Shown: positions 10,349 to 63,044, counted from the stretch's first letter. The stretch is DNA of 64,000 bases from an uncultured virus (IMG/VR IMGVR_UViG_3300025138_000028) (IMGVR_UViG_3300025138_000028); one strand, 5' to 3'. Notes: generated from the letters alone by a model not told the origin. Made by a program: numbers and translations.

Positions 10349-10558
10349 ATGGATCTGGTAAAAATTAAGAATGAGAGTGAATATATGCGTGATTTAAATA
10401 GTGGAGCTATTGTAAATACGAACACTATAGATATAGAAAAACGTCGAAATTTGAAATTAAAAAAACGTCAAGAAAAAATAGAATTTGAAAATTTAAAAGT
10501 TGAAGTAAATGACATTAAGAAAATGTTAATCGAAATATCCAGAAAGTTAGGTGACTAA
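10349..10558 (+). CDS. Small coiled-coil protein of T4-like phages (hypothetical)
   Basis: RBS AGGAG; RDLNSGAIVNTN followed by a coiled-coil-like tail; coupled to the next gene by TAATG. Confidence 0.7.
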   Translation: MDLVKIKNESEYMRDLNSGAIVNTNTIDIEKRRNLKLKKRQEKIEFENLKVEVNDIKKMLIEISRKLGD

Positions 10559-11730
10559 TGGCACGACTAGAGAAAACGGAACTTAGTAATAGCATAAACG
10601 CTTGGAGAACAAAAACAAATCTCACAGCTTCTTATGTGGGAGATTTAGATAATCTAAACACTTCAGACAGTTCTTCAATTGTGGGTGCTATTAATTCAAT
10701 CGAAAGTAAATTTTCAGCTAACGGCGAAGTTGAAACTATAGCTAAAACAGCATTTAATGTGACAAATTCTGGTGGTGGCACATACGCCCAATTAACATAT
10801 GATAATACAACAGGTACATTTTCATTTGTTAGAAATGCTATCACTCAATTGGAAGTGCCTAATATTGACGCAGGTAAAATTACAACAGGAACACTTGATC
10901 CGGCAAGAGTTCCGGTATTTGATGCCGCTAATATTGCAACAGGTACAATAGCCACTGCAAGACTTCCATTCTTAGATGCAAACCAAACAACATCTGGTAC
11001 ATTTGCAGTAGGTAGAATTCCTAATATTGATGCAGCTAAAGTTATATCAGGCACATTAGCGATAGGTAGAATTCCAACTATTCCATCTAGTTACATTACG
11101 GACGATGGAACTGATCTTCCAGAAGCAATTATTCCACCTAATATAGCTAGAAAAAATTCAAGTGATACGATTACTGGTAATAGAGATTTTGCTGGAACAG
11201 CCACAGTTGCACAACAGTTGACTGCAAATGGCGGAATAGTTACAACTACTTTACAAACAACTGGTGATATTTTACCCGCTGCCAATAACTTATATAAAGT
11301 GGGATCCACAACTCAAAAATGGTTAGAGATGCACGCCACAACATTTCACGGTGTTGCTACGTCTGCAAACTTTGCTGACCTCGCAGAAAATTATACTACA
11401 GAACTAGATCATCCAGTTGGTACTGTAATGAGAGTATCTACAGGCGAAGTTGCAGAAACCGATGCGTGTAATTCTAATAGTATTCCTATAGGTGTTGTAT
11501 CTTTAGAGCCTGCATATTTAATGAATGCCGAATGTGAAGGACAATCACTCGCTCTTAAAGGACGAGTGCCCGTAAGAATTGTAGGACCAATAAGTAAAGG
11601 AGACGCGGTATATGCTTACAATGATGGAACTGCATCTAGTCTGTATGACGGAGCGCATATTGTAGGCATTGCTTTGGAATCTAATAATAATTCAGAAGAA
11701 AAATTAGTAGAGTGTGTTTTGAAAGTGTAG
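10558..11730 (+). CDS. Fibre-like virion protein with 18-aa repeats and a C-terminal peptidase G2-like/intramolecular chaperone-type domain
   Basis: Repeats of the form xPxxDAxxxxxGTxxxxR; C-terminal ADLAENY...GVVS.EPAYLMN...LKGRVPV. Confidence 0.65.
   Translation: MARLEKTELSNSINAWRTKTNLTASYVGDLDNLNTSDSSSIVGAINSIESKFSANGEVETIAKTAFNVTNSGGGTYAQLTYDNTTGTFSFVRNAITQLEVPNIDAGKITTGTLDPARVPVFDAANIATGTIATARLPFLDANQTTSGTFAVGRIPNIDAAKVISGTLAIGRIPTIPSSYITDDGTDLPEAIIPPNIARKNSSDTITGNRDFAGTATVAQQLTANGGIVTTTLQTTGDILPAANNLYKVGSTTQKWLEMHATTFHGVATSANFADLAENYTTELDHPVGTVMRVSTGEVAETDACNSNSIPIGVVSLEPAYLMNAECEGQSLALKGRVPVRIVGPISKGDAVYAYNDGTASSLYDGAHIVGIALESNNNSEEKLVECVLKV
10855..11070 (+). repeat. Four 18-aa (54-bp) degenerate tandem repeats
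   Basis: VPNIDAGKITTGTLDPAR / VPVFDAANIATGTIATAR / LPFLDANQTTSGTFAVGR / IPNIDAAKVISGTLAIGR. Confidence 0.85.
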
Positions 11731-11756: not shown

Positions 11757-11784
11757 ATTATAACAGATTCGTTAGATTTGTCAA
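11757..11784 (-). promoter_or_regulatory. Consensus sigma70-type promoter pointing leftwards, antisense to the structural genes
   Basis: Minus strand reads TTGACA-aatctaacgaatctgt(16)-TATAAT, including an extended -10 TGn. Confidence 0.65.
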
Positions 11785-11807: not shown

Positions 11808-11836
11808 TTTACATTGTGTTTTACATATAGTAAAAT
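11808..11836 (+). promoter_or_regulatory. Sigma70/early-type promoter for the radical SAM island
   Basis: TTTACA (11808-11813), 17-nt spacer, TAAAAT (11831-11836), immediately before the first island gene. Confidence 0.6.
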
Positions 11837-11842
11837 ATAAGA

Positions 11843-12361
11843 ATGGAGAATATTATGTTTAGTAAACTAAAATTTTTAAATGCAATTCAATCAAAATATA
11901 TTTATCAGCAGAAAATGGTTTACTCTATTGATGAGGAAGGTCGTGAGAATCTTATAGAAAACTTTGCCGAAATAATGAAATATCCTATGCGATCTGTAAA
12001 AATTGAGAGAATGGAAGATTATAATAGAGATATATTTGATTACTGTTCATATCTAAGACGAAAACAAAAGCATAAAGGTCCTATTACCTGTCACTTGTTT
12101 TACGCATCTGAGGGTGCTTATTCATTTAAAGAACATACTGATCCAGACGATGTTGTAATATATTGTTGTGAAGGAGAAAAGTCTTTAACGATAAATGGAG
12201 CATATATAAAGATACCATCTCTATCTTGGGTAAAAATTCCTGCAAATACACCACATCAAGCATTTAATGAAACAGAAGCATTAACTTTAAGTTTTGGTCT
12301 AGAAGATTTTATAGAGGATAAAGTGACATATGAATTGGACGGTCTATCTAAAAACGACTGA
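11843..12361 (+). CDS. Cupin/JmjC-like Fe(II)/2OG oxygenase (alternative start 11855 after GGAG)
   Basis: HxD (KEHTDPDDV) plus distal His (IPANTPHQA) and LTLSFG, a jelly-roll facial-triad pattern. Confidence 0.7.
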   Translation: MENIMFSKLKFLNAIQSKYIYQQKMVYSIDEEGRENLIENFAEIMKYPMRSVKIERMEDYNRDIFDYCSYLRRKQKHKGPITCHLFYASEGAYSFKEHTDPDDVVIYCCEGEKSLTINGAYIKIPSLSWVKIPANTPHQAFNETEALTLSFGLEDFIEDKVTYELDGLSKND

Positions 12362-13349
12362 GACTTGCCAGCTTAATTGTAGCCATTGCTTCACAAGTGG
12401 AAGCAAGGGTCAGAAAATATATTGGAATACAGATAAAATAGTTGATTGGCTTCATAGATTTAGAGCGGAAAAACCAGATGAGCATGATTTTATTCATTTA
12501 GAGTTTCATGGTGGTGAGCCATTTCTTGTTCCTGTGGGACAAATGAGAAAAGTATATGATGCTTGTAACGGTCTTTGGAATGATATGTCTTGGGGAGCAA
12601 CAACTAATCTTGTATTTAAATTAAAAGATGAGCATAAAGAATTTATAAAAGGACCTTTAAAAGGTAGATTGGGTACTTCCTGGGATCGTAAAATAAGATT
12701 TGATAATGCTAAACAGTACGCATTATGGCATAAAAATGTAAAAACATTATTGAGCGAAGGAGTGACAATAAGGCTTTTTATAAGTCTGACAAAAGACACT
12801 CTTAAAAAAGAACCTATTGTTCTGTTGCGCTGGCTAAGAAGATTAGGCGTCCAAGAAGTGTCTCTTGAAAGGTTGACTAATAATGGAAATGCCAGAAGTG
12901 CGTCTGAAATTTTTCCCACAAACAAAGAGTTGGATGCTTATTTTCTAAAGCTACATCAACAAAGTGAAGAATATGGAGCAAGAGATTGGTTCGATAACTG
13001 TTTTCTTGAAGATGTTTACGCTAAATTTGAAAAAACTCAAATGACTTGTGGCACGTTTTGTCGAGACTGTGAACAAAAATTATTTACTGTGAATGGTGAT
13101 GGCAGCATTAGCGGATGTCCTAATGCTGCTCCAGAATTTCAATTTGGACATTTAGATGATTCTATTAAAACTCTTATAAATAGTCCTAGAAGAATACGAA
13201 CAATATTAGAAGAAAAGATACGAAATCCTAACTGTTTAAAATGTCCCGTAGCTAGATTTTGCGGTGGTGACTGTCACCAACTAGGTTGGGAAGGAGATAT
13301 ATGTGGAGCACCGAAAAGCTTGATGCTTGAATTAGCAGAAAATGTCTAG
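12330..13349 (+). CDS. Radical SAM protein with SPASM-like domain
   Basis: CQLNCSHC (CX3CX2C), FHGGEP, and C-terminal CRDC...GCPN...CLKC...CGGDC...C. Confidence 0.92.
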   Translation: MNWTVYLKTTETCQLNCSHCFTSGSKGQKIYWNTDKIVDWLHRFRAEKPDEHDFIHLEFHGGEPFLVPVGQMRKVYDACNGLWNDMSWGATTNLVFKLKDEHKEFIKGPLKGRLGTSWDRKIRFDNAKQYALWHKNVKTLLSEGVTIRLFISLTKDTLKKEPIVLLRWLRRLGVQEVSLERLTNNGNARSASEIFPTNKELDAYFLKLHQQSEEYGARDWFDNCFLEDVYAKFEKTQMTCGTFCRDCEQKLFTVNGDGSISGCPNAAPEFQFGHLDDSIKTLINSPRRIRTILEEKIRNPNCLKCPVARFCGGDCHQLGWEGDICGAPKSLMLELAENV

Positions 13350-13358
13350 GAGATAAAG

Positions 13359-14135
13359 ATGGCAATATCAGACCCTATTACAGAGAACCCTGTAATTACG
13401 AAATATAAAGAATTAGTAGCTACTAGAATTAATAATCAAATTGTATATCATGACGGTAACTTACCGGATTCCAAATTTGCTCACCAATTTGCGGGCAATC
13501 AAGGAGGAATTTCCACAACTCCTGATTTAATAGACGCTCCTATCACCGCTCAAGATATGTACAACGTTCTTTTGAAAGATGTTAATAGATTTACTAGGAT
13601 TAGAAGATTTAGTGCTTCAATAAACATATCTGGTGCAGGAGGTGGAGGACTTACACCTAATCTAAACCAATCAGGAGCTCAAACAGATAGAAGAACACAA
13701 GCAACAGAAAATATGAATTTTAGCTGTGAGTGGGTAACAGCATTTCCAGATACAACATTGAGAAATGATTTCAAACAAAAGTGGGGTCGTTTTGGAGTAG
13801 ATGATCTTACAGCAGCAACACAACTTTGCGAAGATGCCAAAGTTAAGTCTGCTGTCGCAAATAGAGCAGGATCTATTGTTGCGACAGCCAGAAGTGTTTC
13901 TAATCAAGTAGGAATTTTAAGTTCTAGACATAGATTTGATCTTGATTCATCAGACGTTACAAATAATTTATCTGCTGGGCAAGTTATTGACGATGCAGCA
14001 CTTGAGGTTTTATTTAATGCATTATATAATGCTTGGTCAGCTAAAGCTATAAGTGGTTCACCTGTGTCATTCTCTATGACAATGTGTCACTCTAACTGTC
14101 ATTCTAATTGCCATGCATCAAGAGGTAGGAGATAA
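13359..14135 (+). CDS. Hypothetical protein with C-terminal Cys/His repeat CHSNCHSNCHASRGRR; candidate substrate of the island
   Basis: Strong RBS AGGAG; Ala/Ser/Thr/Gly/Asn-rich, structural-like composition unlike the neighbouring enzymes; terminal repeat at 14085-14132. Confidence 0.75.
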   Translation: MAISDPITENPVITKYKELVATRINNQIVYHDGNLPDSKFAHQFAGNQGGISTTPDLIDAPITAQDMYNVLLKDVNRFTRIRRFSASINISGAGGGGLTPNLNQSGAQTDRRTQATENMNFSCEWVTAFPDTTLRNDFKQKWGRFGVDDLTAATQLCEDAKVKSAVANRAGSIVATARSVSNQVGILSSRHRFDLDSSDVTNNLSAGQVIDDAALEVLFNALYNAWSAKAISGSPVSFSMTMCHSNCHSNCHASRGRR

Positions 14136-14829
14136 AAATATTATGAGTGAAATGAATTTAGTGAAGGCTCCATTAGAGATTGGGGATCTACAATTATATT
14201 TTGAAAACAAAGATATTAAGTTTTTAATTGATTATGAAGGATCGACTTTAAAAGGAGAAGAACTTTTAGTATATTTGAGTAACTTAGAATTGCCGTGCGA
14301 TTTAAAAATTGACGATGATACTACTATGGCAGAATTAGGAAAAATATATTTAAAGTTTGAGAAAATAATTGATATTCCTATATTAGAAAAATTTATTATT
14401 GATGCCTTGTTTGGACATAGGCGAATTCTATTCGGTAACTCTCAATATATGAGTCTTGAAAATTTACTTTCTTTTGTTCAGGAAAATGAAGAACAGTTAG
14501 AAGCGTGGTGCGATAAGTTAGATTCCTTGACGCTCTATAATTTATATACAATTGACCAAGAACAAATGAAAGACTTTGTAAAATCTCATATAGAAGATGA
14601 TACAGATAGTATTAGAGGAATCAATTTTGTAAGCATTTTAAAAAATGAAAATTTTTATTATTATTATAATTCACTAGATGATTCCAAAAAATTGAAATAT
14701 TATTCAAAATATTTTAATGACTATATGTTTGCTGGAAAAGGACTATTCGATTTTTGGGCAGTTAAAGAAAATCCATTATTTGTATTATCCTGGGGTCTTC
14801 TAGAGGACACGACTGTTGGAACTGAGTGA
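14113..14829 (+). CDS. Hypothetical acidic protein of the radical SAM island (probable start 14143)
   Basis: Open frame; AGGAG at about 14127-14131 precedes ATG 14143; no motif recognised. Confidence 0.7.
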   Translation: MHQEVGDKNIMSEMNLVKAPLEIGDLQLYFENKDIKFLIDYEGSTLKGEELLVYLSNLELPCDLKIDDDTTMAELGKIYLKFEKIIDIPILEKFIIDALFGHRRILFGNSQYMSLENLLSFVQENEEQLEAWCDKLDSLTLYNLYTIDQEQMKDFVKSHIEDDTDSIRGINFVSILKNENFYYYYNSLDDSKKLKYYSKYFNDYMFAGKGLFDFWAVKENPLFVLSWGLLEDTTVGTE

Positions 14830-15853
14830 CTTTATATTAAGAGATAAGCGGGATTCTCAGCAAGAATATACCATACACTTATTCGAATTTTGCAATCTAA
14901 ATTGTCCGTTCTGCTGGCAAGACCACAATAATATTGTGGGTATTAATACAGTATTAGATAAATTAGAACCCGTTGATAAATTTTTAAAAACTGAAATGCG
15001 TAAAAGCGTTGTATTTAATATAATGGGCGGTGAGATATTTGCAGATGAGATATTTAATGTATCATTATTAAATGATTACATTGCTCTTGCTAAAGGCATA
15101 AAAGAACTTGGAAAAAAATATAATAAGAGAACAGAGATAAACTGGGTAACTAATCTTGTCATAAGTAAGCGCGATCAGATAGAAACTTTACTTCAGAATT
15201 GCCGTGATCTTAATATGAAAAGCAAACTAGTAACTTCATTTGATCCTGCGGGTAGATTTAATAAACCAAATCTTCAAATCTTTTTAGATAATATAGAATA
15301 TTTCAAAAATGAACTAGATGGCATAGGAATACTTTTAACAAAGCCTAATATCAAATACTGGTTAAAAGAGACTGAAGGAGTATTAAAGCAACTATATGAT
15401 GATGGAATATATCTGTACGCAGACTACTATATGCCGGACTGTCAAGCGAAACGAAGCGCACCTTCTGACCAAGATATGCTTGATATATTTAAACATTTCA
15501 TCAATAACTATCCGAAGATTGATCCTATTAGGTCATGGATAGAGAATGAAACAAATGTTGTTAGCTGTAGATCATCTAAATTGATACTAGAAGATGGAAC
15601 AATGTGTCTTTGTGGAAACCTTGTACAAGACGCAAAAGATAAAGCGATGTACAAAACAGATATACAAAAGAAAAATAATACTCCCATTGAAGCAAGTTTT
15701 ATAAACAAATATAATTGTTCGACTTGTAAATATTTTAGTAGATGTACTTTGGGGTGCTTTATGGCTCACGATTACAAATATGCTGAGGAAGTATTAGATG
15801 AATGTGTCTATAAAATAACACACAGATACATTGAAGAAAGTGGATTAAGGTGA
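14816..15853 (+). CDS. Radical SAM protein with Cys-rich SPASM/twitch-like C-terminus (TTG start)
   Basis: CNLNCPFC, MGGE, then SCRS...CLCG...CSTCKYFSRCTLGC...C. Confidence 0.88.
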   Translation: MELSDFILRDKRDSQQEYTIHLFEFCNLNCPFCWQDHNNIVGINTVLDKLEPVDKFLKTEMRKSVVFNIMGGEIFADEIFNVSLLNDYIALAKGIKELGKKYNKRTEINWVTNLVISKRDQIETLLQNCRDLNMKSKLVTSFDPAGRFNKPNLQIFLDNIEYFKNELDGIGILLTKPNIKYWLKETEGVLKQLYDDGIYLYADYYMPDCQAKRSAPSDQDMLDIFKHFINNYPKIDPIRSWIENETNVVSCRSSKLILEDGTMCLCGNLVQDAKDKAMYKTDIQKKNNTPIEASFINKYNCSTCKYFSRCTLGCFMAHDYKYAEEVLDECVYKITHRYIEESGLR

Positions 15854-16507
15854 ATGTTTTTACATGCAAATGTCGATATGACACCTATAAGCCAAACTAA
15901 GATAAATTATGGTTTTAAAAATTCAACTCCTGTAAAAAAGATTGATATTGATTACAATGTATGCTATAGTGTATTTGATTATGAAGTAGATAGCAGTTTG
16001 CCTCCTTGTTTACATTTTTTAGACAATTTCTTAACAAGCGAAGTTTATGTTTTTAGTTTACCACTATCAAGCAATCGTTTAAGTAAAATACCCTCTAAAT
16101 CAATTCTTAAAGACTATATTTCTAATTGGATAGGATATCCTAAAACTTCAATAACTAATAACTTAGAATTGGGTTGGATAGGAATTGAAAAATCTAAGAT
16201 AATTTCTAATATACAAATTAGTGGATTATATCTAAACACTTTGTCGAGAAAACAAGCAACAGATTTTTATAGACTTATGTTAAATTTTTGTCTAAAGGAA
16301 ATAAAAGCAAGACCTCTCTATGTACCTTCAGCTAAAACTATAAAAGCTTTTTCAAAAAAGTTTTCAAATCATAGAGATATGAAAATTATGGAAAGTCCTT
16401 ATACATCTAAGATACTAAAAGGAGCTAGTAAATGTAAGTTTACTGAGAGTATTTACGCTAATAGATACATAAATGAAGATGAAATGGAATTTTTTAGATA
16501 TGATTAA
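15854..16507 (+). CDS. Hypothetical protein
   Basis: 217-aa ORF that fills the gap in a tightly packed operon; no motif recognised. Confidence 0.6.
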   Translation: MFLHANVDMTPISQTKINYGFKNSTPVKKIDIDYNVCYSVFDYEVDSSLPPCLHFLDNFLTSEVYVFSLPLSSNRLSKIPSKSILKDYISNWIGYPKTSITNNLELGWIGIEKSKIISNIQISGLYLNTLSRKQATDFYRLMLNFCLKEIKARPLYVPSAKTIKAFSKKFSNHRDMKIMESPYTSKILKGASKCKFTESIYANRYINEDEMEFFRYD

Positions 16508-18152
16508 AATTGGCTATTTAGATCCTAGCAGCATACCAACCAGAACTAATTTTAATTATAACTGGATGCTTTTTAAATGTTTTTATGAAGATTTTGGTAA
16601 ATATCCAGATCAGGTTGAATGGGTTGAACCGCTCTATAAATGGAATGAAACTAATTTAGACGATATTTTATATTCACTACAAGATTGTGATATTGTATTG
16701 TTTACTAGTTATGTTTGGAACTATAAAATTAATAAAAAAGTTGTAGATCGTTTAAGTAAAGATACTGTAACTATTTTAGGAGGTCCTCATCAAAACTTTG
16801 AAATAGTAAGATACTACGATCATGTGGCAGATCCTACCGCTCCAGGAGAATTATTCTTACAATTCTTTATAGATATGTTTTTAGAAAATAACATCATAAA
16901 GAATAATATACCTTATTATAATAATGGACTAAAATTACCATATAAATTTGGCAGTAGTAATGTTTATAAAAGATGTGGTGAATATTTGAGAAAATGTTAT
17001 AACTATTTTAATGAAAATATTGATTATTTTCAAGAAATGATTATAGTTTATGAATCGACACGAGGTTGCCCATTTAAATGCACTTATTGTGAATGGGGTG
17101 GAGGTACAGCGACTAAGACTTTGAAAAAGACTATAGATGTAATAAAAGATGAACTTGAGTTTTTAGGAACTTTTGATAATTTAAAATTAGATTTGACAGA
17201 CGCGAATACCGGAATGTTAAAAAAACGCGATATCGAAATGATGCTTATTATGAAAGAAAATAATGTTCAAGTTGGTGATACTATTTCCGTTTTAAAAACA
17301 TTGAAAGTTGAAGATAAAATTGATATTATAGATTTTATGATTGAAAATGAAATTACTAGTAGAACAATCAGTATCAGTGTTCAATCGATATCCAAAAAAG
17401 CGAGAGATATTGCAAAACGTATTGATCTTGAATATGATGATACTATAAAACTAATTGATCATATTAAAGATAGATGGGGTAATCTACATGATAAAGATTT
17501 ATATGTTGATTTAGAATTGATATTAGGTATGCCCGGATCGACCCTAGAAGATTTTTATGATGAATTTAAACTATACTATAGATTAAGTTCTAATGTATCG
17601 AAATCTCCTGAAGGTCAGCCATGGCAGAATTTCAGAGATGGTAGATTTCCATATATGATTTTGCCTGCAACAGAGTCCGCTTCTCCGGTATATCAAAGAA
17701 AATATGGAATAAAAACTGCAAGAGTAGCTACATTTTTTGATAATAATTATCAATTTGATCCTGCAATAGATAAACCAAATTTATTATATGAAAATCATCA
17801 CTATGAATACGATACTATTATAGAATGTTTTAGTTATACTTTTGAAGAATATATTGAGATGTTTATAATGAACATCTACACTCCTATTTTATTTGAGGCA
17901 TTTACCAAAGAGTATATCACGTTTGAAAATATAAGTGTTGTCGCTAAAGAATTGTGGAATACACTTAACAAAATTTCAACATTTAATGTTTATAAAGAGT
18001 TAATCAAAAGAATATTTAACTCAAATGATGTTAGAAGTTTAGACAAATTTGGTGAGGGAAATTTCGATGATTTATCAATTGAAGAGGTGCTAAGAAATTT
18101 ATTATATGAAAATGAAAATCTTATAAGGAAAAACTTAGATGCAGTTTGTTGA
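16473..18152 (+). CDS. B12-binding-domain radical SAM protein, class B methyltransferase-like (probable start 16500)
   Basis: N-terminal LFTSYVWN...ILGGPH cobalamin-binding-type segment; ESTRGCPFKCTYCEWG; DANTG; ELILGMPG. Confidence 0.85.
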   Translation: MKMKWNFLDMIKIGYLDPSSIPTRTNFNYNWMLFKCFYEDFGKYPDQVEWVEPLYKWNETNLDDILYSLQDCDIVLFTSYVWNYKINKKVVDRLSKDTVTILGGPHQNFEIVRYYDHVADPTAPGELFLQFFIDMFLENNIIKNNIPYYNNGLKLPYKFGSSNVYKRCGEYLRKCYNYFNENIDYFQEMIIVYESTRGCPFKCTYCEWGGGTATKTLKKTIDVIKDELEFLGTFDNLKLDLTDANTGMLKKRDIEMMLIMKENNVQVGDTISVLKTLKVEDKIDIIDFMIENEITSRTISISVQSISKKARDIAKRIDLEYDDTIKLIDHIKDRWGNLHDKDLYVDLELILGMPGSTLEDFYDEFKLYYRLSSNVSKSPEGQPWQNFRDGRFPYMILPATESASPVYQRKYGIKTARVATFFDNNYQFDPAIDKPNLLYENHHYEYDTIIECFSYTFEEYIEMFIMNIYTPILFEAFTKEYITFENISVVAKELWNTLNKISTFNVYKELIKRIFNSNDVRSLDKFGEGNFDDLSIEEVLRNLLYENENLIRKNLDAVC

Positions 18153-18627
18153 AGTCCACGATAATATTTTTAATTCTACTGAAATTGAAGAAATATTAAA
18201 CGAGTTTAAATGGAAAAAATCTACAGGAATAGTAAATATATTAGATGAAATAAATCATCTTAACAAATTAGATTTAATAAAATGTTTAGTTTTAGGTAAA
18301 GGACATAAGACTCCAGTACTTGCACATGCACTTAATACAAAGTGTTACGATTTTACAACCAAAGATCATAAAATATGGGAACCTCATAACGATGCCGAAG
18401 AATGTAAAATTATAACTCTTTTATTTGTTGATATTGACACAAACGGTTGGGTAGGTGGAGAATTAGACATATATAAAAATTTAGATGTATTCGATTTTCC
18501 TAATAACAAAACAAGAATAGAACCTAAAGTTGGTAGATTAGTTTTGTTCGAAAGTTCTATGATACATGCTATACGGCCGTACTTCGGAAAAAAATCGAGA
18601 AAAACTATAAGCATAGGGTGGGAATGA
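18139..18627 (+). CDS. 2OG-Fe(II) oxygenase, prolyl-hydroxylase-like
   Basis: HND...WVGGEL...PKVGRLVLF...HAIRP...RKTI (HxD...H...R). Confidence 0.85.
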   Translation: MQFVEVHDNIFNSTEIEEILNEFKWKKSTGIVNILDEINHLNKLDLIKCLVLGKGHKTPVLAHALNTKCYDFTTKDHKIWEPHNDAEECKIITLLFVDIDTNGWVGGELDIYKNLDVFDFPNNKTRIEPKVGRLVLFESSMIHAIRPYFGKKSRKTISIGWE

Positions 18628-18628
18628 C

Positions 18629-19192
18629 ATGAATTTTGATGACGGCTATATGATAGAAAGTAGACCTGATTTGTTTAAGTATGTTGACGATACGATACCA
18701 AAATTATCTTGGTATTTTCCAAAGATTCTTGAAAATTTTTTAATTAAATTATTCGAAAGACCAGAATTTAAAGACTTTGATGTTCCTTGGAATTATCATC
18801 TTCATGGTATGAAAAGAAAGATGTTAAAAACTGCAAATTTACTAGATGAAGAATATTTGCCCAAAGGAAATAATGAATTGATTTATTATTCTATATGGAA
18901 TGGATCTGATACATCTTCTTACAAATGGCATAACGATTTAATAGAAGGAGCAAATGTTTTCTTTTTGATGTACTACACAAATATGAATCTAAATGAGGGT
19001 GGAGAGATTATGTTTAGAAATCTTAATCAAGATAAAAGAATAACATGCTTTCACTTACCTAAAAAATATGACGTCCTTTATGGTTCTCAAGCGAAACATT
19101 TTGAACATAGAGTTGAAACTTTGAGAGAACCTAATGTAGAAAGAATTGCAATGAATTTCGGATTTAAAGTAGATAATTCGCCATGGGAATAG
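18629..19192 (+). CDS. 2OG-Fe(II) oxygenase
   Basis: WHND...GGEI...HRVE...RIAMNF. Confidence 0.8.
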   Translation: MNFDDGYMIESRPDLFKYVDDTIPKLSWYFPKILENFLIKLFERPEFKDFDVPWNYHLHGMKRKMLKTANLLDEEYLPKGNNELIYYSIWNGSDTSSYKWHNDLIEGANVFFLMYYTNMNLNEGGEIMFRNLNQDKRITCFHLPKKYDVLYGSQAKHFEHRVETLREPNVERIAMNFGFKVDNSPWE

Positions 19193-19746
19193 ATTTTTCT
19201 GATTTCGATTTCAAAAAAGGTTGTTATCACGATAACAATTCTGGTATATTTAAATATGTCGATAACACTTTACCTAAGCTGAAATTTTTCAATGTTAAAG
19301 GTTTATTCACAGGAGAACCTGGAACAATATCTTGGAACTACCATGTACATTTTATGTATTTTAGAATGAGAAAAACAGCTAAACTTCTATTTGATTACTA
19401 TCTTCCATGGGAAAAGAAAATGAATTTAGTTTATCATCAAGTTTGGAATGGAGTTGAGCCTTTGTCTACTGATTGGCATCACGATACTGGTGGTGGCAAC
19501 ATTCAATTTAATTTGTATTATACAGATATTGATCCAAATATTGGTGGTGAAATAATGTATAGAAGTGTGAAAGAAGATAATAAAATTACATTTGCTGCTT
19601 TACCTAAAAAATATGATATAGTGATGGGAAGCTGTGGAAAAGATATGAAATTTCAACATAGAGTTGAAGGGTTTAGAACGAACAAAAAGAAAGAAAGATT
19701 AACGATGTTGTTTAGATTTAGTGTTGAGAAATCCCCTTGGACCTAA
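19183..19746 (+). CDS. 2OG-Fe(II) oxygenase, paralogue of 18629-19192
   Basis: WHHD...GGEI...HRVE...RLTMLF; shares FKYVD.T.PKL, WNYH, LPKKYD and SPW with its neighbour. Confidence 0.8.
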   Translation: MGIDFSDFDFKKGCYHDNNSGIFKYVDNTLPKLKFFNVKGLFTGEPGTISWNYHVHFMYFRMRKTAKLLFDYYLPWEKKMNLVYHQVWNGVEPLSTDWHHDTGGGNIQFNLYYTDIDPNIGGEIMYRSVKEDNKITFAALPKKYDIVMGSCGKDMKFQHRVEGFRTNKKKERLTMLFRFSVEKSPWT

Positions 19747-20777
19747 TAGTTAAACCAACTGAACTATGTAACTTTAAATGTAGTTTTTGTTCTTCCTCTA
19801 AAATCACAATGGAAGACAATACAGCTATTTTGGATTTAAATAAAATATTTAAGTTCCTAAAACGTTTTCCAAATACTCAGACTATTATCGTTAATGGTGG
19901 CGATCCTTTAATGATGAAACCTAATTACTATTGGAAAATTATAGAATTTCTTGATAAGCATAATTTACCGGCAACTCTTTCTCTCACAACTAATTTATGG
20001 CCTTTCTTAATGAAGCCTCTTAAATGGAAAGAATTATTTAATCATCCAAGAGTAGGAGTGTCAACATCTTTTCAGTATGGCGGCGGCAGATTAAAAGGCG
20101 ATTATAGCGACTTTACGGAAGAAGATTTTTGGAAATGTTCCGATGCTATGCTAGAGCATGTCGGATATAGACCTACTTTTATCTCTGTTATTGTAGAGGA
20201 AAATGAAGATACTGTTATTCAGACTGTAGAATTAGCGAAAAAAATGGATATAGTATGTAAAGTAAATTATGCAATGGCGTCAGGATCACAATCTGCTCCA
20301 TACCAACTATCGAAAATATATGAGAGATATATCCAGATATGGAAAGCAGGACTTAGTGATTGGGAACATAACACTCAACAAATGTTAAATAGATTAAGAG
20401 ATACACCCACAATATGTCCTCAGTCAAGAAACTGCGATAGTGGAATTCGAAATATTCAGCCAGAGGGTGATTACTATTCTTGTGGCTCTTTTGGAGATGA
20501 TTTTGATAAACCAATAGATTTTGAGTATGAAATGAATGGAGGATTTGAAACTCCTCTTAGTAATGATTTAAGTTTGATGAGTCTTAAAAATTCATGCTTC
20601 ACTTGTCCTATGTTCGAAATTTGTAATGGCTGTCGAAAAACAATCAAAGACCTAAAACAATATAACATGGTTGAAGATCATTGTAAACATATGAAATCAA
20701 TGGCAAGTGATATTATTGCTCTAAATAGAATTGACAGTAAAGTTACACCTTATATTGATGAGAGACAATCTGTATGA
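19737..20777 (+). CDS. Radical SAM protein with SPASM-like domain (TTG start)
   Basis: LIVKPTELCNFKCSFC, NGGDPL, then CPQSRNC...YSCG...CFTCPMFEICNGC...C. Confidence 0.92.
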   Translation: MDLIVKPTELCNFKCSFCSSSKITMEDNTAILDLNKIFKFLKRFPNTQTIIVNGGDPLMMKPNYYWKIIEFLDKHNLPATLSLTTNLWPFLMKPLKWKELFNHPRVGVSTSFQYGGGRLKGDYSDFTEEDFWKCSDAMLEHVGYRPTFISVIVEENEDTVIQTVELAKKMDIVCKVNYAMASGSQSAPYQLSKIYERYIQIWKAGLSDWEHNTQQMLNRLRDTPTICPQSRNCDSGIRNIQPEGDYYSCGSFGDDFDKPIDFEYEMNGGFETPLSNDLSLMSLKNSCFTCPMFEICNGCRKTIKDLKQYNMVEDHCKHMKSMASDIIALNRIDSKVTPYIDERQSV

Positions 20778-21331
20778 TTTATAATTTATTTCCTACTAAA
20801 ATCTATATCGAAAAAATGGATATTACAGATGAAGAATCTGAAGCAATATCAGATTTATGTAATATAATAAATGAAGTTGATAAAGATAAAGCTTTATTCA
20901 CTCAACATAATTTAGAGTGTTATCCTCTATTAAGAGAAGTTTATGATTTTTTTGTAAAATCTTTTTGTGAACTTTTATTGGAGTATGATGACGATGTAAC
21001 TTATGAAAATATCTATGATATGATGTTATATAAAACAGGTAAGATATCATACTTAAAAGACGGAGAATTTAAATCTATAAATGTTTCGACAAATGCTGAT
21101 TTAATTGCACTATTCTTTTTAAGCGATAAAAATTTAATTCTACATGATCCATCTTTTAAAAGAATTCCCATACTTAGTGATGACAGAGAATATTTAGTCG
21201 AAGGAAAGAAAGATACAATTATCGTTATTCCTGCAAATGTATGGCATGAAATTAGAACATATGATTCCGAAGATAATGGAGTTATTTTAACTATGGAAAT
21301 AAATATCGACAAACTATCTAGAATGCCATAA
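20774..21331 (+). CDS. Putative, possibly degenerate 2OG-Fe(II) oxygenase-like protein
   Basis: N-terminal LFPTKIY, LHDP and IPANVWHE resemble phage 2OG-oxygenase-like families, but the proximal HxH/HxD is not evident. Confidence 0.5.
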   Translation: MIYNLFPTKIYIEKMDITDEESEAISDLCNIINEVDKDKALFTQHNLECYPLLREVYDFFVKSFCELLLEYDDDVTYENIYDMMLYKTGKISYLKDGEFKSINVSTNADLIALFFLSDKNLILHDPSFKRIPILSDDREYLVEGKKDTIIVIPANVWHEIRTYDSEDNGVILTMEINIDKLSRMP

Positions 21332-21340
21332 GTCTAAAAA

Positions 21341-22273
21341 ATGATCGTATCAATAAATCCAACTTACTTCTGCAACTTTAGATGCGACTTTTGCTATCTA
21401 ACGTCTGAAGAATTAGGTAATCAGAAACAGATTTCGTTCAATAAACTAGACGAATTACTATCTCAAGTACATAATATTGAACACATTGACTTGTATGGTG
21501 GTGAAATTGGAGCAATGAAAAAATCTTATTTTTATGGACTTAAAGAAATTATTAGAAAACACTATTCTGGTATCATTAATATCAACACAAACTATTCTAT
21601 GATGCATCCCGGTTTTTTTGATAATGACGTATATCTCTCGGTATCGTATGATTTTGAAGCAAGAGAAAAATCAGAATTAGTATTTCAAAATATGTTAATG
21701 AGTACTGTACCTATAGCTGTTCTTATTTTAGCTTCTCCAAAAGTATTGGCAAAAGATGTACATCAAATGATTAATATGTTGAATATGTGTTCTTCAATTA
21801 CATCTGTTGAAATTAAACCATATTCAATTAACCAAGCTAATGCACATAATGTAACACACAAAGATTTTGAAGATTTTGTTATAAAGTGGCTTAAATTAAA
21901 AGACAAAATGAAGTTTGAATTTGTAAATGAAGAAAGAATTATAGAATCAATGAAAGGAAGATATAATGCATTTTCGGATGATCATATATACATCACTCCT
22001 TCTGGCAAATTTGGCGTCTTGGAATTTGACGAAGAAGATAAAGAATTCTTTCTTGAATTGGATTCTTGGGAACAATACCTCGATTGGACAAAAAAAGAAA
22101 AAGAAGAAATGGTAAGTCCTATATGTGCATCATGCATATATTTCGGAAACTGTTTAACTGAGCATTACAGATATGTTAAGGATTTAGATAATGGCTGTAA
22201 CGGATATAAAGGATTATTGGACTGGTATGGAAGATTGGAAAATAGCGAGTCAAGTTTATCATTTGCTTCATAA
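21341..22273 (+). CDS. Radical SAM protein with Cys-rich C-terminus
   Basis: NPTYFCNFRCDFCY, LYGGEIG, C-terminal CASCIYFGNCLTEH...GCNG. Confidence 0.9.
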   Translation: MIVSINPTYFCNFRCDFCYLTSEELGNQKQISFNKLDELLSQVHNIEHIDLYGGEIGAMKKSYFYGLKEIIRKHYSGIININTNYSMMHPGFFDNDVYLSVSYDFEAREKSELVFQNMLMSTVPIAVLILASPKVLAKDVHQMINMLNMCSSITSVEIKPYSINQANAHNVTHKDFEDFVIKWLKLKDKMKFEFVNEERIIESMKGRYNAFSDDHIYITPSGKFGVLEFDEEDKEFFLELDSWEQYLDWTKKEKEEMVSPICASCIYFGNCLTEHYRYVKDLDNGCNGYKGLLDWYGRLENSESSLSFAS

Positions 22274-22631
22274 AAATCATTCAGATGATTTGAATAGAGT
22301 AGATATAACTTGGATTGAAAATGATATAGTAGAGTGGTCTAAAAAGCACTTCAGTGAACACATTGAAGAATGGGTATATCCAGCAAAATCGTATTTTGTC
22401 GCAATATGTTATGCTTCTTGGTTATCTGAAGATTTTGATGAAAATTTCTGGAAACTTTTAAATGATGATATGTTACTTTCGGGCAATGATCCACATTTTG
22501 TAACATATGAAAATGATAAAGACACTTATGATAAAATTATAGAAGGCATAGAATTTCCGTTAAAAATGTCAGGAATGGTACCAGACGTCCGTAAATATTA
22601 TAATGCTGAGTTTGAATTAGCAATAAAATAG
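22191..22631 (+). CDS. Hypothetical protein, last gene of the island (probable start 22227)
   Basis: Open frame overlapping the radical SAM gene end; contains YPAKSYFVAICYA and NDPHF segments. Confidence 0.65.
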   Translation: MAVTDIKDYWTGMEDWKIASQVYHLLHKNHSDDLNRVDITWIENDIVEWSKKHFSEHIEEWVYPAKSYFVAICYASWLSEDFDENFWKLLNDDMLLSGNDPHFVTYENDKDTYDKIIEGIEFPLKMSGMVPDVRKYYNAEFELAIK

Positions 22632-22671: not shown

Positions 22672-23340
22672 ATGGCTAAAAAAATAAATATATCTCTAAC
22701 GGATACTGTAGGAACACTGAGACAATCGACAAATACAATGTCAGATTACGTAGGTGAACCAGATAATCTAGCTACAACTAATAAATCGGATTTAGTTCAA
22801 GCTATAAATGAGATTAACAGCAATACCGGAGCTTCTTTTATAACAAGTCGCCTAAGTTTAGCATCAGGTGGCGATGGTGGTCATACAACATTATCATACG
22901 ACTCTTCTAGTGGCACATTTCAATTCAACTGTAATGCTATCGGTCCAGGTGATTTTAATACTGCTTTGCCGGCTACTATTATTGCTTCTGGAGTTTTTGC
23001 TGCAGCAAGAATCCCTGCTTTAGATGCAAGTATAATTAATTCAGGAGTCCTTAATACGGCAAGAATTCCTGCCTTAAATACTATAAGCGGCACATTGACT
23101 AGTTCGCAGATTGGTTTTAATTCTGGAAATATTCCTGAAAATACTAATTTATTTCATACAACTGCTAGGGCAAGGGCTTCAATATCAGCTGGACATAGTC
23201 ATGTAGTATATAATAGTACAAGTGGTGAAATATCATTAGACTCATCTTCTGTATTATTTATAGGTCTTGCTGAATTGAAAACATATCTAAGTAATGCAGA
23301 TAGCTTTGGATCATTTGTCACTACGATTAACGCCCTATAA
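22672..23340 (+). CDS. Fibre-like virion protein, paralogue of the N-terminus of 10558-11730
   Basis: YVGEPDNLATTNKSDLVQAINEI, LSYDSSSGTFQF and ARIPALDASIINSG repeats. Confidence 0.7.
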   Translation: MAKKINISLTDTVGTLRQSTNTMSDYVGEPDNLATTNKSDLVQAINEINSNTGASFITSRLSLASGGDGGHTTLSYDSSSGTFQFNCNAIGPGDFNTALPATIIASGVFAAARIPALDASIINSGVLNTARIPALNTISGTLTSSQIGFNSGNIPENTNLFHTTARARASISAGHSHVVYNSTSGEISLDSSSVLFIGLAELKTYLSNADSFGSFVTTINAL

Positions 23341-23354: not shown

Positions 23355-24383
23355 ATGGTCAAGATATTAGATTTACCAACGTTAGACTCCGCATCTTTAA
23401 CTGGCGGAACAGACTTTGTTGTTGTCACTGGACCAACTATTACTGGTGGTTACGGAACGGGCAAAGTTCTTCTAAATACTTTAAGCGATTATTACAACAA
23501 TACAGGTGCCCTAAATTCTGCTGGCGTTTCAAGCTTAGTGGATTCGAACTATATTTTTAATTCTATTAATAACTCAACTACCAATAGTTTAACAAAACCT
23601 ACAATAATCTCATGGAATAATATATCTAATAAGCCAAATAGCGTTGCAGGTACGGGCGTTTTAGACGCAATGAAAACTACCGATCTTAATATTGTGACTG
23701 CTGCCGCATCAGGCAGTGGAGCATTAGCGTATAATTCAGTATCAACAGAACTTACGTATACTCCTCCACTAATAACATCAAATGTGGATTCTTCTGGTGA
23801 TGTTACTGAAGGTCAAAATCTTTTCTTTACAGGAGCGAGAGTTGTTGCTATTGTAGACTCATCATATGTTAATGCAAGAGTAGATACGGGAATTGATTCC
23901 GCAGCAACAATTTCATTGGTAGATTCTGCCTACGTTTTAGCTAGGTCTTCTGCTGGACTAGATTCAGCTACAATCACCGGCTCTATCACAGATACAAAAT
24001 ATCTAAGATCAGATGAATTAGATAATGGACATTCTTTGAGCCTTAGCCACACATTTCATGCAGTCGGCGCAATAACTTCTGATGGCGATATTACTGCTTT
24101 TAATAGTGCATCAGATAGAAAACTTAAAGAGAATATAAAAGTTATTGATAATGCTGTTGACAAGATAGCTTCTATTTCAGGATATACATTTAACTATATC
24201 GGACGTGAAGAAAAAATGTCAGGAGTAATTGCAGACGAAGTTGAGGCTGTTTTGCCAGAAGTTGTTTATGAATTTGATGGTGAATATAAAGCTGTTCGTT
24301 ATGGTAATATGATGGGATTGATCATCGAAGCTATAAAAGAATTAAAGACAGATATTGACGAATTAAAAGAAAAGATTAAATAA
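23355..24383 (+). CDS. Tail fibre with C-terminal peptidase S74 intramolecular chaperone
   Basis: SDRKLKENI...GYTFNY...GVIADEVEAVLPEVV...VRYGNMMGLIIEAIKEL. Confidence 0.85.
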   Translation: MVKILDLPTLDSASLTGGTDFVVVTGPTITGGYGTGKVLLNTLSDYYNNTGALNSAGVSSLVDSNYIFNSINNSTTNSLTKPTIISWNNISNKPNSVAGTGVLDAMKTTDLNIVTAAASGSGALAYNSVSTELTYTPPLITSNVDSSGDVTEGQNLFFTGARVVAIVDSSYVNARVDTGIDSAATISLVDSAYVLARSSAGLDSATITGSITDTKYLRSDELDNGHSLSLSHTFHAVGAITSDGDITAFNSASDRKLKENIKVIDNAVDKIASISGYTFNYIGREEKMSGVIADEVEAVLPEVVYEFDGEYKAVRYGNMMGLIIEAIKELKTDIDELKEKIK

Positions 24384-60153: not shown

Positions 60154-60165
60154 GGAGACACATGT

Positions 60166-60561
60166 ATGAACGTATATCAAACTGACATTAATGGTGTCTA
60201 CTTAGGCACAACAACAGCAGACCAAGACCCTTTAGATAACACTAATTGGCTCATTCCAGCAGGTTGTGTAGAGACTGCACCTCCAACAATAACCGACAGC
60301 CAGCTTGCAAAATGGGGTGGTACAGAGTGGGTTGTAGAAGATATTCCTACTGTGGAGCCTGACCCAGAACCTGAGCCTATCGCACCAGAAGTTTCAGCCC
60401 GTAGAAAACGTGACGGACTATTGATGACCTCAGATTGGACACAAGTTAATGACTCTCCTGTAGATAAGTCTGCATGGGCAACATATAGACAACTTTTACG
60501 AGAGGTACCAAGTCAAGCAGAATTCCCAAACACAATTGTATGGCCTACTAAACCCGTATAG
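60166..60561 (+). CDS. Tail fibre assembly chaperone
   Basis: LIPAGCVETAPP; RRKRDGLLMTSDWTQ..D...WATYRQLLREVP.Q..FP..IVWP.KP. Confidence 0.8.
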   Translation: MNVYQTDINGVYLGTTTADQDPLDNTNWLIPAGCVETAPPTITDSQLAKWGGTEWVVEDIPTVEPDPEPEPIAPEVSARRKRDGLLMTSDWTQVNDSPVDKSAWATYRQLLREVPSQAEFPNTIVWPTKPV

Positions 60562-60587
60562 AGTATGCATAATCAGGAGAAAAAAGA

Positions 60588-61283: not shown

Positions 61284-61291
61284 GAAATATA

Positions 61292-62092: not shown

Positions 62093-62107
62093 CAAATAGG
62101 AGACACT

Positions 62108-62578: not shown

Positions 62579-62604
62579 AATATGCGTAATCAGGAGAAAC
62601 GAGA

Positions 62605-63021: not shown

Positions 63022-63024
63022 ATA
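63017..63024 (+). promoter_or_regulatory. T4-type late promoter TATAAATA
   Basis: Exact consensus overlapping the chaperone stop, about 20 nt before the next ATG. Confidence 0.65.
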
Positions 63025-63044
63025 TACAATCGGGAGAAACAGAA

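Follow-up and report, generated by a model that had tools for sequence, protein, structure and literature searches.

A marine phage cassette of radical SAM and other iron-dependent enzymes, proposed to mature the Cys-His tail of a virion protein

We propose that a densely packed gene island of a marine T4-like phage serves as a cassette that matures a single small virion protein, the CH protein 13359, whose Cys-His tail is predicted to be modified by four radical SAM enzymes, rSAM1–4; we put the probability of this reading at roughly two in three. The island occupies positions 11843–22631 of the window, the 64,000-nucleotide stretch of an uncultured virus (IMGVR_UViG_3300025138_000028) that was analysed as a whole. 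The cassette lies among tail-fibre genes, and no published account of it was found in the literature. It encodes about a dozen iron-dependent enzymes, and the tail is most likely their target. The proposal draws on observed gene content, catalytic motifs, the linkage of motif and enzymes in both directions, and the virion location of one homologue. Gene calls place 14 ORFs in the island, all on the plus strand (Table 1); neighbouring genes overlap at nine of the 13 junctions, abut at one and are 1–9 nt apart at three, confirming the packed, mostly overlapping co-directional arrangement described in a first-pass annotation. Five products are radical SAM proteins (four anSME-like rSAM/SPASM paralogues and one B12-type), and the rest are a His-Asp-His cupin, three 2OG oxygenases, a degenerate oxygenase, three unknowns and a 258-aa non-enzyme. 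The promoter candidate is a consensus match, which says nothing on function.

Table 1. Features of the cassette and its flanks in the window.
Feature	Position	Strand	Description
Tail-fibre-like protein 10558	10558..11730	+	PHROG tail-fibre families over residues 218-389
Sigma-70-like promoter candidate TTTACA-17-TAAAAT	11808..11836	+	Before first cassette gene; consensus scan, 10/12 positions
Cupin with His-x-Asp...His metal triad	11843..12361	+	Sub-threshold Cupin_2 and JmjC_2; phrog_8014
rSAM1	12330..13349	+	Radical SAM/SPASM, anSME-like, no N-terminal RRE; CX3CX2C at residue 13, CX2CX5CX3C at 302
CH protein, proposed substrate and virion component	13359..14135	+	258 aa, folded alpha/beta body
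CH protein C-terminal tail CHSNCHSNCHASRGRR	14085..14132	+	(Cys-His-x-Ser/Asn)x3 then Arg-x-Arg-Arg; proposed modification site
Conserved system-specific protein 14113	14113..14829	+	phrog_20767; AF2 pLDDT 83.9
rSAM2	14816..15853	+	Radical_SAM 29.5 bits; phrog_1802; CX3CX2C at residue 26, CX2CX5CX3C at 301
Protein 15854, variable accessory block	15854..16507	+	Homologues in closest loci only
Class-B-like (B12-type) radical SAM, accessory	16473..18152	+	CX3CX2C at residue 199
2OG-Fe(II) oxygenase, accessory	18139..18627	+	PF13640 (2OG-FeII_Oxy_3) 30.5 bits, cut-off 27
2OG-Fe(II) oxygenase, accessory, paralogue of 19183	18629..19192	+	PF13640 22.8 bits
2OG-Fe(II) oxygenase paralogue	19183..19746	+	41% identity to 18629
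rSAM3	19737..20777	+	Radical SAM/SPASM; Radical_SAM 37.9 bits; DynA model 56.5 bits, full length
Degenerate 2OG-FeII_Oxy_5 family member	20774..21331	+	Own family matches PF13759
rSAM4	21341..22273	+	Radical_SAM 28.5 bits; phrog_1802; reduced C-terminal Cys set
Conserved system-specific small protein 22191	22191..22631	+	phrog_20737
Fibre-like protein 22672	22672..23340	+	N-terminus paralogous to 10558; weak tail-fibre PHROG matches
Tail fibre with C-terminal Peptidase_S74 intramolecular chaperone domain	23355..24383	+	PF13884 52.5 bits; many tail-fibre PHROGs

All five radical SAM enzymes (12330, 14816, 16473, 19737 and 21341) match Pfam Radical_SAM (PF04055), scoring 18.7–37.9 bits against a cut-off of 29.5 that three of them reach and that 12330 and 21341 fall just below. 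CX3CX2C, the motif that binds the SAM-cleaving [4Fe-4S] cluster, is present in 5/5. SPASM (TIGR04085/PF13186) denotes a seven-Cys domain at the C-terminus that holds two auxiliary clusters, and a SPASM-type CX2CX5CX2-3C core is found in 12330, 14816 and 19737. The TIGR04085 cut-off of 27 is exceeded by rSAM1 alone (36.7); rSAM3, below it at 21.7, carries CX2CX5CX2C, and the Cys core of rSAM2 is recognised by pattern alone. With eight Cys in total, rSAM4 has CX2CX5C and one further Cys, and is therefore partial or twitch-like. Of the four enzymes to which SPASM/twitch-like tails were originally ascribed, three show the Cys core and 21341 shows part of it. All 11 motif Cys of rSAM1 are invariant across 26 sequences, its profile (residues 11–317) aligns full-length to residues 13–333 of anSME 4k37, and its full-length alignments comprise DynA, anSME, PapB and CbpB. 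rSAM3 is the most conserved enzyme of the cassette, with 58–60% identity to jumbo-phage copies. The four small radical SAM enzymes align full-length to SPASM maturases and by the N-terminus only to MoaA, NrdG and viperin, in agreement with the peptide or protein maturase class first assigned to them. Judged from its sequence, 16473 is a probable C-methyltransferase: its best family is NF033712, the KedN5-type B12 radical SAM C-methyltransferases (79.4 bits, cut-off 700). The radical SAM motif in the earlier description of this protein as B12-binding stands; the B12 domain is a weak TIGR04013 match over residues 67–208, below cut-off (35.3 bits, cut-off 251), and Pfam gave no PF02310 match at E<=0.01.

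The cupin is a core gene of phage cassettes. Its Pfam matches are sub-threshold, yet H98, D100 and H138 are invariant in the family, as is K113 (n=15 sequences), in keeping with the original JmjC/cupin call; the profile matches cupin dioxygenases and, weakly, MINA53. The three predicted 2OG oxygenases were recovered as well, with 18139 above the Pfam cut-off and H101, D103, H160 and R172 (the His-x-Asp...His triad and the 2OG-binding Arg) invariant in the family of 18629 and 19183. PF13759 is matched by 6/7 members of the 20774 family (best E-value 1.5e-14) and the window copy matches nothing; the earlier term 'degenerate' is therefore apt. Homologues of 14113 and of 22191 occur in phage and Bdellovibrionota cassettes. 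In long-form loci a 14113-type gene always follows the CH gene, and 14113 has no PDB match by fold or sequence. The 22191 alignment has 21 invariant columns (n=24 sequences), and neither Pfam nor the PDB gave a match. No family was found for 15854 in Pfam, PHROGs or NCBIfam.

What is the likely substrate? AF2 models 13359 as a folded body with what appears to be a flexible tail (pLDDT 85.2, pTM 0.82, low confidence over residues 241–258). Its fold has no counterpart in the PDB and it has no Pfam domain of any kind. The family comprises at least 846 sequence clusters at E<=1e-3, and in a 41-sequence alignment the body is conserved at both ends. Mean column identity is just 24%, yet C243, H244, C247, H248, C251 and H252 are invariant. 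CHxxCHxxCHxxRxRR terminates 146 of 159 family proteins, and position 4 of each tail unit is Ser or Asn in 140–145 of the 146 with the full motif. The Cys/His repeat tail noted at first sight is real in sequence.

The motif and the enzymes are linked in both directions. Starting from the enzymes, a CH-motif ORF lies between rSAM1 and the 14113 homologue in 39/39 long-form loci, bearing out the expectation that a CHxx protein accompanies homologous clusters. Starting from the DNA pattern of the motif alone, 80 viral loci were obtained, of which 77 have at least one rSAM type and 46 have all four; 36/39 genuine genome matches to the motif are likewise linked to rSAM types. The two viral sets are not fully independent, because some contigs are common to both. 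In compact loci tandem pairs of motif genes are sited elsewhere, within the DNA examined in 6/23; among five further compact records searched whole, three hold such a pair and two, which are 16% and 32% complete, hold no motif gene. The same kit is found in jumbo phages and in the chromosomes of Bdellovibrionota predators, where it is often next to S74 fibre genes. The cassette sits in structural modules, and fibre genes are always near.

The C-terminal ~150 aa of 10558 form a domain that recurs immediately 5' of cassette or CH-protein genes in related loci, across which the position of 10558 is conserved. The island had been described as lying between paralogous fibre genes; the paralogy of 10558 and 22672 holds over the N-terminal 155 residues (34% identity) and not beyond. 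The Atlas neighbours of 10558 are viral clusters with PF11962 Peptidase_G2 in 11–27% of members, a lead only. In virions of Atu_ph07 the CH-protein homologue gp170 was detected by 8 peptides at 35% coverage, with peak abundance in gel fragment 1, the top slice (Attai 2018, Suppl. Table S5); its recomputed mass is 31.89 kDa. Atu_ph07 is one distant jumbo phage, and gp170 shares 33% identity with 13359 over the last 88 residues. The same virion table includes gp176, the fibre homologue of 10558 (34% identity, 168 aa); gp164–169, gp171 and gp172 are absent from it, and none of the cassette enzymes was detected (Attai 2018, Suppl. Table S5). A virion substrate had been guessed in the first-pass annotation, and its interpretation is supported, the tests of enzyme family, CHxx linkage and virion location coming out in its favour.

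How might the cassette operate? The substrate would be 13359, a folded body with a flexible (Cys-His-x-Ser/Asn)x3-Arg-x-Arg-Arg tail, on which four distinct anSME-like rSAM/SPASM enzymes would act inside the infected cell, with the system-specific 14113 and 22191 and the His-Asp-His cupin as putative helpers. The likeliest products would be intramolecular cross-links in the tail. These would be either Cys thioethers or C-C bonds joining His to the beta-carbon of the Ser/Asn at position +2, a type of bond found in triceptides and hinted at in HxsA. Extra tailoring in this lineage of phages may come from the B12-type radical SAM methylase and the three 2OG oxygenases. Once matured, the CH protein would be assembled into the particle along with 10558, the fibre encoded nearby. 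Four rSAM enzymes stand against three tail repeats, and the stoichiometric logic is not obvious. A broader idea, which we hold tentatively and consider rather doubtful, is that a fibre-associated, cross-linked Cys-His-Ser module built by radical SAM enzymes is common to Bdellovibrionota predators and to three or more unrelated phage lineages. It would be a protein-derived tip element that binds metal or locks covalently and is required for recognition or breaching of the Gram-negative envelope. If so, the anomalous top-of-gel migration of gp170 would mean covalent linkage into the fibre assembly; the high gel position could instead reflect an SDS-stable oligomer.

The CH tail could simply bind metal, both Cys and His being typical ligands for metals. 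It would then be an unmodified metal or iron-sulfur site, shared for instance on a trimer axis; the CH protein would be a metalloprotein with a structural or accessory role, and the radical SAM enzymes would have another target, such as a glycan, a small molecule or the fibre next door. T4 fibres are known to hold metal sites on their axes, Cys/His pairs at four-residue spacing appear plausible ligands, and fibre genes are always at hand. However, conservation is as strict at the Ser/Asn position and in the Arg-x-Arg-Arg end as at the ligands, which metal binding alone would not call for, the 13359 AF2 model is globular and not fibre-like, and in the loci compared the enzymes are accompanied by no second conserved protein with Cys or repeats that could be a substrate; we regard this alternative as unlikely. 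Another reading makes the matured CH protein an effector, an HXS-like factor that could bind DNA or the envelope and that, once delivered or released, would stop superinfection or work against a host defence. In the bacterial HXS system two radical SAM enzymes mature a His-x-Ser repeat protein, and the system stops phage DNA entry (PMC13128918); the phage tail has a basic end and three H-x-S/N units. This is distinctly improbable, given that the HxsB, HxsC and HxsD models give no family-level match, that 13359 has no peptidoglycan-binding domain in Pfam and no signal peptide by eye, and that the cassette sits in structural modules with a homologue packaged in virions. The substrates of the mycofactocin and PQQ pathways are C-terminal core peptides, and the several radical SAM and oxygenase steps here recall a biosynthetic cluster. 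A diffusible modified peptide or cofactor of that kind cut from the tail is nevertheless very improbable: as first reported, the island proteins hold no transporter or protease families in Pfam and NCBIfam profile searches, the CH protein has a folded body with conservation at either end, and the virion peptides span 35% of gp170. That the enzymes modify nucleotides or DNA, in the manner of viperin, QueE or NrdG, is barely credible, the viperin, MoaA and NrdG matches of the small radical SAM enzymes being weak (18–33 bits, cut-offs 131–284) and limited to the N-terminal 50–90 residues, the cluster-binding loop, whereas the full-length alignments are to SPASM maturases.

The maturation cassette proposed here recalls several known systems. 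In QhpD/QhpC of quinohaemoprotein amine dehydrogenase a radical SAM/SPASM enzyme adds several Cys cross-links to the small subunit of a larger assembly. In contrast, rSAM1 reaches 24.2 bits on the QhpD model (cut-off 453), the motif is unlike, four enzymes stand in place of one, and no QhpG-like flavoprotein was seen in the island. anSME (PDB 4k37) shares the minimal radical SAM barrel plus SPASM, the lack of an RRE and a protein target, but identity with it was rejected (TIGR03942: rSAM1 43.0 bits, rSAM3 34.2 bits, cut-off 349.45), and the anSME target motif is presumably missing from the CH tail. Nor is this a strict RiPP pathway: the substrate is a confidently folded 258-aa protein, no island protease family was found, and a homologue occurs in virions at 35% coverage. 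The label 'RiPP-like' survives loosely, for a folded protein with a flexible tail and no leader-core peptide. In Methanococcus voltae the SPASM radical SAM enzyme CrpC makes thioether links on the Cys-rich CrpA encoded alongside (PMC13692751). This archaeal, cellular system has another substrate, and its CrpC carries an RRE domain; the phage enzymes have none, as judged from CX3CX2C beginning at residues 11–26. HaaB and HtkB are reported to be triceptide three-residue cyclophane synthases that act on His motifs (PMC11499958). Such synthases join an aromatic residue to the residue two on, a register that the H-x-S/N units fit; triceptide substrates are short leader-core peptides, unlike 13359. 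Membership of the triceptide/cyclophane families (YhhB, XyeB, FxsB, GrrM, AmcB) was rejected at 16.6–28.6 bits against cut-offs of 310–450.

Of the known systems, HXS defence in bacteria comes closest, although the tests of membership fail. The HXS antiphage system, HxsA/B/C/D (Li et al., Nat Commun 2026, PMC13128918), likewise comprises a protein and not a short peptide, with tandem His-x-Ser units and basic residues, more than one radical SAM enzyme and a small accessory protein, the modification being mapped to the HxS unit. The phage enzymes score 34.9 bits on HxsB (cut-off 370) and 30.1 on HxsC (cut-off 267.9), and 0/14 island proteins match any HxsD model at E<=0.01. Identity with the HXS effector, which has tandem His-x-Ser repeats and a peptidoglycan-binding domain, was also rejected: 13359 has three C-H-x-S/N units but no Pfam domain of any kind. 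The phage protein bears its three Cys-His-x-Ser units right at the C-terminal end and has no peptidoglycan-binding domain, and the product here would be a virion protein of phages, with counterparts in predatory bacteria.

Based on our computational observations, we propose a model in which the Cys-His tail of a phage protein would be enzymatically modified before the protein enters the particle. The modifying set would comprise four small radical SAM proteins (rSAM1-4; 12330, 14816, 19737 and 21341, genes being named by start coordinate), the system-specific proteins 14113 and 22191 and the cupin 11843. The substrate would be the CH protein, 13359, which once modified would join the particle beside the fibre. 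An accessory block within the same cassette would contribute additional methylation and hydroxylation, lineage by lineage. The window corresponds to a T4-like myovirus structural module, encoding baseplate wedge, neck, terminase, sheath, tube and portal, the last with 64% identity to the Phage C48C1 portal and about 50% to cyanomyovirus portals. Inside the island (see table) the ORFs overlap at 9 of 13 junctions, and a megablast search of the island against phage records gave no matches. The gene list of the first-pass annotation was borne out by ORF, motif and family checks. CX3CX2C is present in all five radical SAM proteins, the cupin has a His-x-Asp...His triad that is kept across its family, and there are three 2OG oxygenases (18139, 18629 and 19183) and three proteins left without assignment (14113, 15854 and 22191). 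The degenerate oxygenase 20774 was also correctly read: 2OG-FeII_Oxy_5 is matched by six of seven members of its family, the Pfam signal being lost in the window copy. SPASM-type Cys cores are found in the tails of rSAM1-4, which are paralogues within phrog_1802, with a reduced Cys set in 21341; the nearest model for the putative B12-type radical SAM protein 16473 is KedN5, with a score far under that family's cut-off.

Positions of the cassette, promoter-like sites and other features in the window
Feature	Position	Strand	Basis or remark
Island (cassette)	11843-22631	+	14 ORFs, bounded by fibre genes 10558 and 22672/23355
TATAAATA copies	196, 13175, 22633, 26803, 46590, 51841, 54210, 63017		octamer match
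Sigma-70 consensus, 12/12 plus TG extension	11757-11784	minus	gap before cassette, aimed back into fibre gene 10558
Long ORF	26844-40556		one ORF of 4570 aa in structural module; next ORFs 1142 and 869 aa, without PHROG match
Collar-/tail-fibre genes	55822-63998		1443 aa, 231 aa, ORF open at window's end; four small fibre-assembly-type genes interspersed

The CH protein (258 aa), whose Cys/His repeat tail had been noted from the sequence, ends in CHSNCHSNCHASRGRR. A profile search of 1.84 billion representatives retrieved 846 relatives with E<=1e-3, of which 560 have E<=1e-10. The C-terminal end CHxxCHxxCHxxRxRR is present in 146 of 159 family proteins, nine others having three CH units with another ending and four having fewer units. 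The fourth residue of units 1, 2 and 3 is Ser in 129, 110 and 132 of those 146 proteins, and nearly all the remainder have Asn. Across 41 aligned rows, with a mean column identity of 24%, all six Cys/His are invariant and conservation of the three Arg is at least 90%. A tail acting as an unmodified metal site was considered as an alternative to modification. An HXS-like effector role for the matured protein was also considered. PADLOC returned nothing on the island beyond generic radical SAM and 2OG matches. The AF2 model of 13359 (pLDDT 85.2, pTM 0.82) folds as an alpha/beta body bearing a long helical hairpin, and its last 18 residues fall in confidence to 60 and 51. Tail conservation and this contrast in modelled confidence thus describe a candidate substrate in which a flexible tail under extreme constraint is attached to a folded protein, unlike a leader-core peptide. 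Release of a peptide or cofactor as the product of the cassette was likewise considered. Among PDB structures no solved fold was found for the CH protein (best Foldseek E-value 1.1), and the best VIA hit (Z 7.0) covers only a 60-residue helical hairpin. BFVD yielded uncharacterised proteins only, the third-ranked being an Atu_ph07 protein of 296 aa (E 2.5e-3), and an Atlas search gave no usable match. Fold searches with 14113 produced nothing clear (best Foldseek E-value 0.25, best VIA Z 3.9), and its similarities to radical SAM barrels, ChlB (Z 3.6) and anSME (Z 2.8), were too weak to use. Sequence and profile searches of the PDB with 14113 and 22191, and Pfam on the 22191 family, gave no matches. 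None of the CH protein, 14113 and 22191, in their phage or predator-locus versions, has a model in NCBIfam release 20.

Several family members depart from the common form. A dedicated search for longer or fused forms of 13359 returned none, which is weak evidence. One CH-family protein of 453 aa (P0054) carries a glycine-rich N-terminal extension of ~270 residues, of a type seen on phage fibre ends, and may be a fused form. A sub-family (loci L062, L063 and L065; proteins P0081, P0095, P0112 and P0130) ends in CHGS plus Ile or Leu and has no Arg-x-Arg-Arg; its loci contain rSAM1, 14113, rSAM3 and a B12-type radical SAM protein, with no rSAM2 or rSAM4 match. On a Dysosmobacter contig (L232:3907-4266), a relative adjoined by rSAM3, rSAM2 and 14113 homologues has many more Cys-His-x-Ser units, in blocks split by Asn-Val(-Pro-Val), and Arg-Gly-Arg-Arg at its end.

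Is the association of enzymes and tail conserved? By tblastn the cassette core was found in 15 cultured jumbo-phage records, duplicates included (Atu_ph07; Phosso; RSL2, RSF1 and RsoM3USA; the FLC phages and SURPRISE13; pPa_SNUABM_DT01), in the order cupin, rSAM1, CH protein, 14113 homologue, rSAM2, rSAM3, rSAM4. In Atu_ph07 and RSL2 it adjoins annotated virion structural or baseplate genes. Scanning IMG/VR with rSAM3 added 78 loci. The co-occurrence of the radical SAM set with a CHxx protein in other phages, which the first-pass annotation had proposed as a check, was seen in all 39 loci holding both rSAM1 and a 14113 homologue, each with a Cys-His repeat ORF between the two. A compact form, cupin-rSAM1-rSAM3-rSAM4-(22191)-rSAM2, has no 14113 gene, and its motif genes lie apart from it in tandem pairs encoding proteins of about 125-137 aa. 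Such a pair is visible within the flanking DNA covered in 6 of 23 compact loci, and in 3 of 5 further compact records searched whole, the other two records being 16% and 32% complete. In the reverse direction, a degenerate DNA pattern for (CHxx)3-RxRR-stop occurs in at least 123 places in IMG/VR. Among the 80 taken with their flanks, 46 have four radical SAM types, 8 three, 11 two, 12 one and 3 none; these three are of the tandem-pair type, and two come from short contigs. The motif-seeded and enzyme-seeded sets share some contigs, so that the two tests are not fully independent. Tandem pairs lie directly downstream of a gene bearing the C-terminal domain of the fibre-type protein 10558, and in the long-form loci (those with rSAM1 and a 14113 homologue) this domain is encoded just upstream of the cupin. 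Its Atlas neighbours are viral clusters in which a minority of members carry Peptidase_G2, an autoproteolytic chaperone domain of fibres and appendages; we treat this as a lead. Radical SAM genes are also listed in the RP12 and RP31 supplements, with no tie to the cassette from the lists alone.

Evidence for a virion location comes from Atu_ph07. In the published proteome (Attai et al. 2018, Suppl. Table S5, PMC6102473), gp170 is among the virion proteins, with 8 unique peptides and 35.16% coverage. Masses calculated from RefSeq coordinates (gp170 31.89, gp176 66.07 and gp177 21.66 kDa) match Table S5 exactly; the table therefore uses the RefSeq numbering, and gp170 is the CH protein. The sample was heated at 95 C in SDS, and gp170 occurs in gel fragments 1-9 with its maximum in fragment 1, the lane top, where proteins are of 76-139 kDa; the capsid protein, of 43.5 kDa, has its maximum in fragment 6 (PMC6102473). 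That a 32-kDa protein peaks in fragment 1 after such treatment suggests either covalent linkage or a highly stable oligomer. The 10558 relative gp176 is likewise in the virion, and the table has no entries for gp164-169, gp171 and gp172 (PMC6102473), which include the radical SAM proteins, cupin and 14113 homologue. In the window, the T4-type late-promoter octamer TATAAATA shows no overall enrichment (12 matches vs 14.3 expected), and seven structural genes have a copy no more than about 70 nt upstream of their starts. One copy falls within rSAM1 at 184 nt ahead of the CH gene, and the site preceding the cassette is sigma-70-like, not a late octamer, so that the timing of enzymes and substrate may differ.

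The enzymes themselves resemble maturases at a distance. The rSAM1 protein aligns over its full length to the DynA, anSME, PapB and CbpB models, and rSAM3 to DynA, all with scores far under the family cut-offs. Residues 11-317 of the rSAM1 family profile align to anSME, and 11 of 11 motif cysteines are invariant across 26 sequences. Nucleotide chemistry was considered too, and the MoaA, NrdG and viperin models matched only the N-terminal cluster loop of the four small proteins. Since CX3CX2C begins at residues 11-26, rSAM1-4 have no N-terminal RRE. Enzymes that bind a segment of protein directly have this minimal architecture. Within the window the four are barely alike (the sole similarity, rSAM3-rSAM4, is 31% over 88 residues), and each has its own orthologue in related loci. 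When rSAM1 was modelled in complex with the C-terminal 35 residues of 13359, the score was 0.02 against a mark of 0.32, which is read neither for nor against the pairing. The accessory block (15854, the B12-type protein, the three 2OG oxygenases and 20774) differs in content among loci and has a G+C of 0.28-0.30 vs about 0.35 in its flanks (window 14000-22000). Contig L003 is 97-100% identical to the window over the core and 79-90% over 16473, 18139, 20774 and 19183, making the block a local hot spot of divergence or exchange. Variable content, lower G+C and local divergence thus fit lineage-specific tailoring, putatively by methylation and hydroxylation.

The cassette extends to bacteria. The (CHxx)3-RxRR-stop pattern was found at 47 places in one-genome-per-species prokaryote contigs; 8 were discarded, being either non-motif matches or CHCH runs of low complexity read in other frames, and family radical SAM genes adjoin 36 of the 39 genuine ones. 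Bdellovibrionota-type names (Bdellovibrio, Bacteriovorax, Halobacteriovoraceae, Pseudobdellovibrio and others) are attached to 27 loci, some on contigs of 1.3-2.8 Mb. Two of these have housekeeping flanks (NrdR, NusB, E1 dehydrogenase, LspA, LolA, SMC), in which no phage hallmark genes were seen. Predator CH proteins retain the motif, sometimes with four units, and have no obvious signal peptide. The 14113 family is present in 16 of 401 sampled Bdellovibrionota genomes, so its distribution is patchy. A gene with a C-terminal Peptidase_S74 chaperone domain lies within 10 kb or less of 11 of the 27 loci, usually at the cassette edge; by a rough inference from ~13 such genes in a genome of ~3.8 Mb, chance would place one in roughly 7% of 20-kb windows. 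In B. bacteriovorus, S74-terminated fibres are prey-recognition adhesins, with this ending in 13 of 21 MAT proteins (PMC10769870). Six contigs (L212, L213, L221, L231, L248 and L250) have the phage-type arrangement and a 10558-like gene; their bins include Marinovum, Rickettsiales, Rhodobacteraceae and even a Methanobacteriota archaeon, and the contigs probably represent prophages or phage DNA that was binned with MAGs.

What are the implications of a modified CH tail? Radical SAM/SPASM chemistry serves peptide antibiotics, cofactors and a few cellular proteins; to our knowledge, no role for it in building virus particles is known. Our model, if confirmed, would introduce an enzymatic, oxygen-sensitive post-translational step into virion assembly, widespread in marine T4-like and soil jumbo phages and common to bacterial predators with phage-like fibres. 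It would add four families of enzymes and a substrate motif, all new to enzymology, as well as a factor that might determine host recognition or particle stability, and the HxS-repeat defence system described recently would gain a counterpart on the phage side. The literature within reach, which left out most subscription journals, including the original RSL2/RSF1 paper, holds only annotation lists for the cassette: jumbo-phage genome papers (PMC8066314, PMC5468394, PMC11898562) annotate cupin, Fe-S oxidoreductases, radical SAM proteins and 2OG oxygenases with no function assigned. Membership at family level failed for HXS, anSME, QhpD, the triceptide families and DynA/PapB, the cassette enzymes having superfamily-level features only. 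Each unit of the CH tail (His, any residue, Ser/Asn) has the same register as the substrates of three-residue cyclophane synthases and as the HxS unit modified by HxsB/C (PMC13128918). The interleaved Cys resemble those of ranthipeptides, sactipeptides, QhpC and CrpA (for CrpA, PMC13692751), which suggests thioethers; neither cyclophane-type nor thioether chemistry is preferred here. Radical SAM/SPASM maturation of a ribosomal product is thus the known element, and what is new is the motif, its set of four enzymes, the viral setting with a proposed substrate in the virion, and the occurrence of the cassette in predatory bacteria as well.
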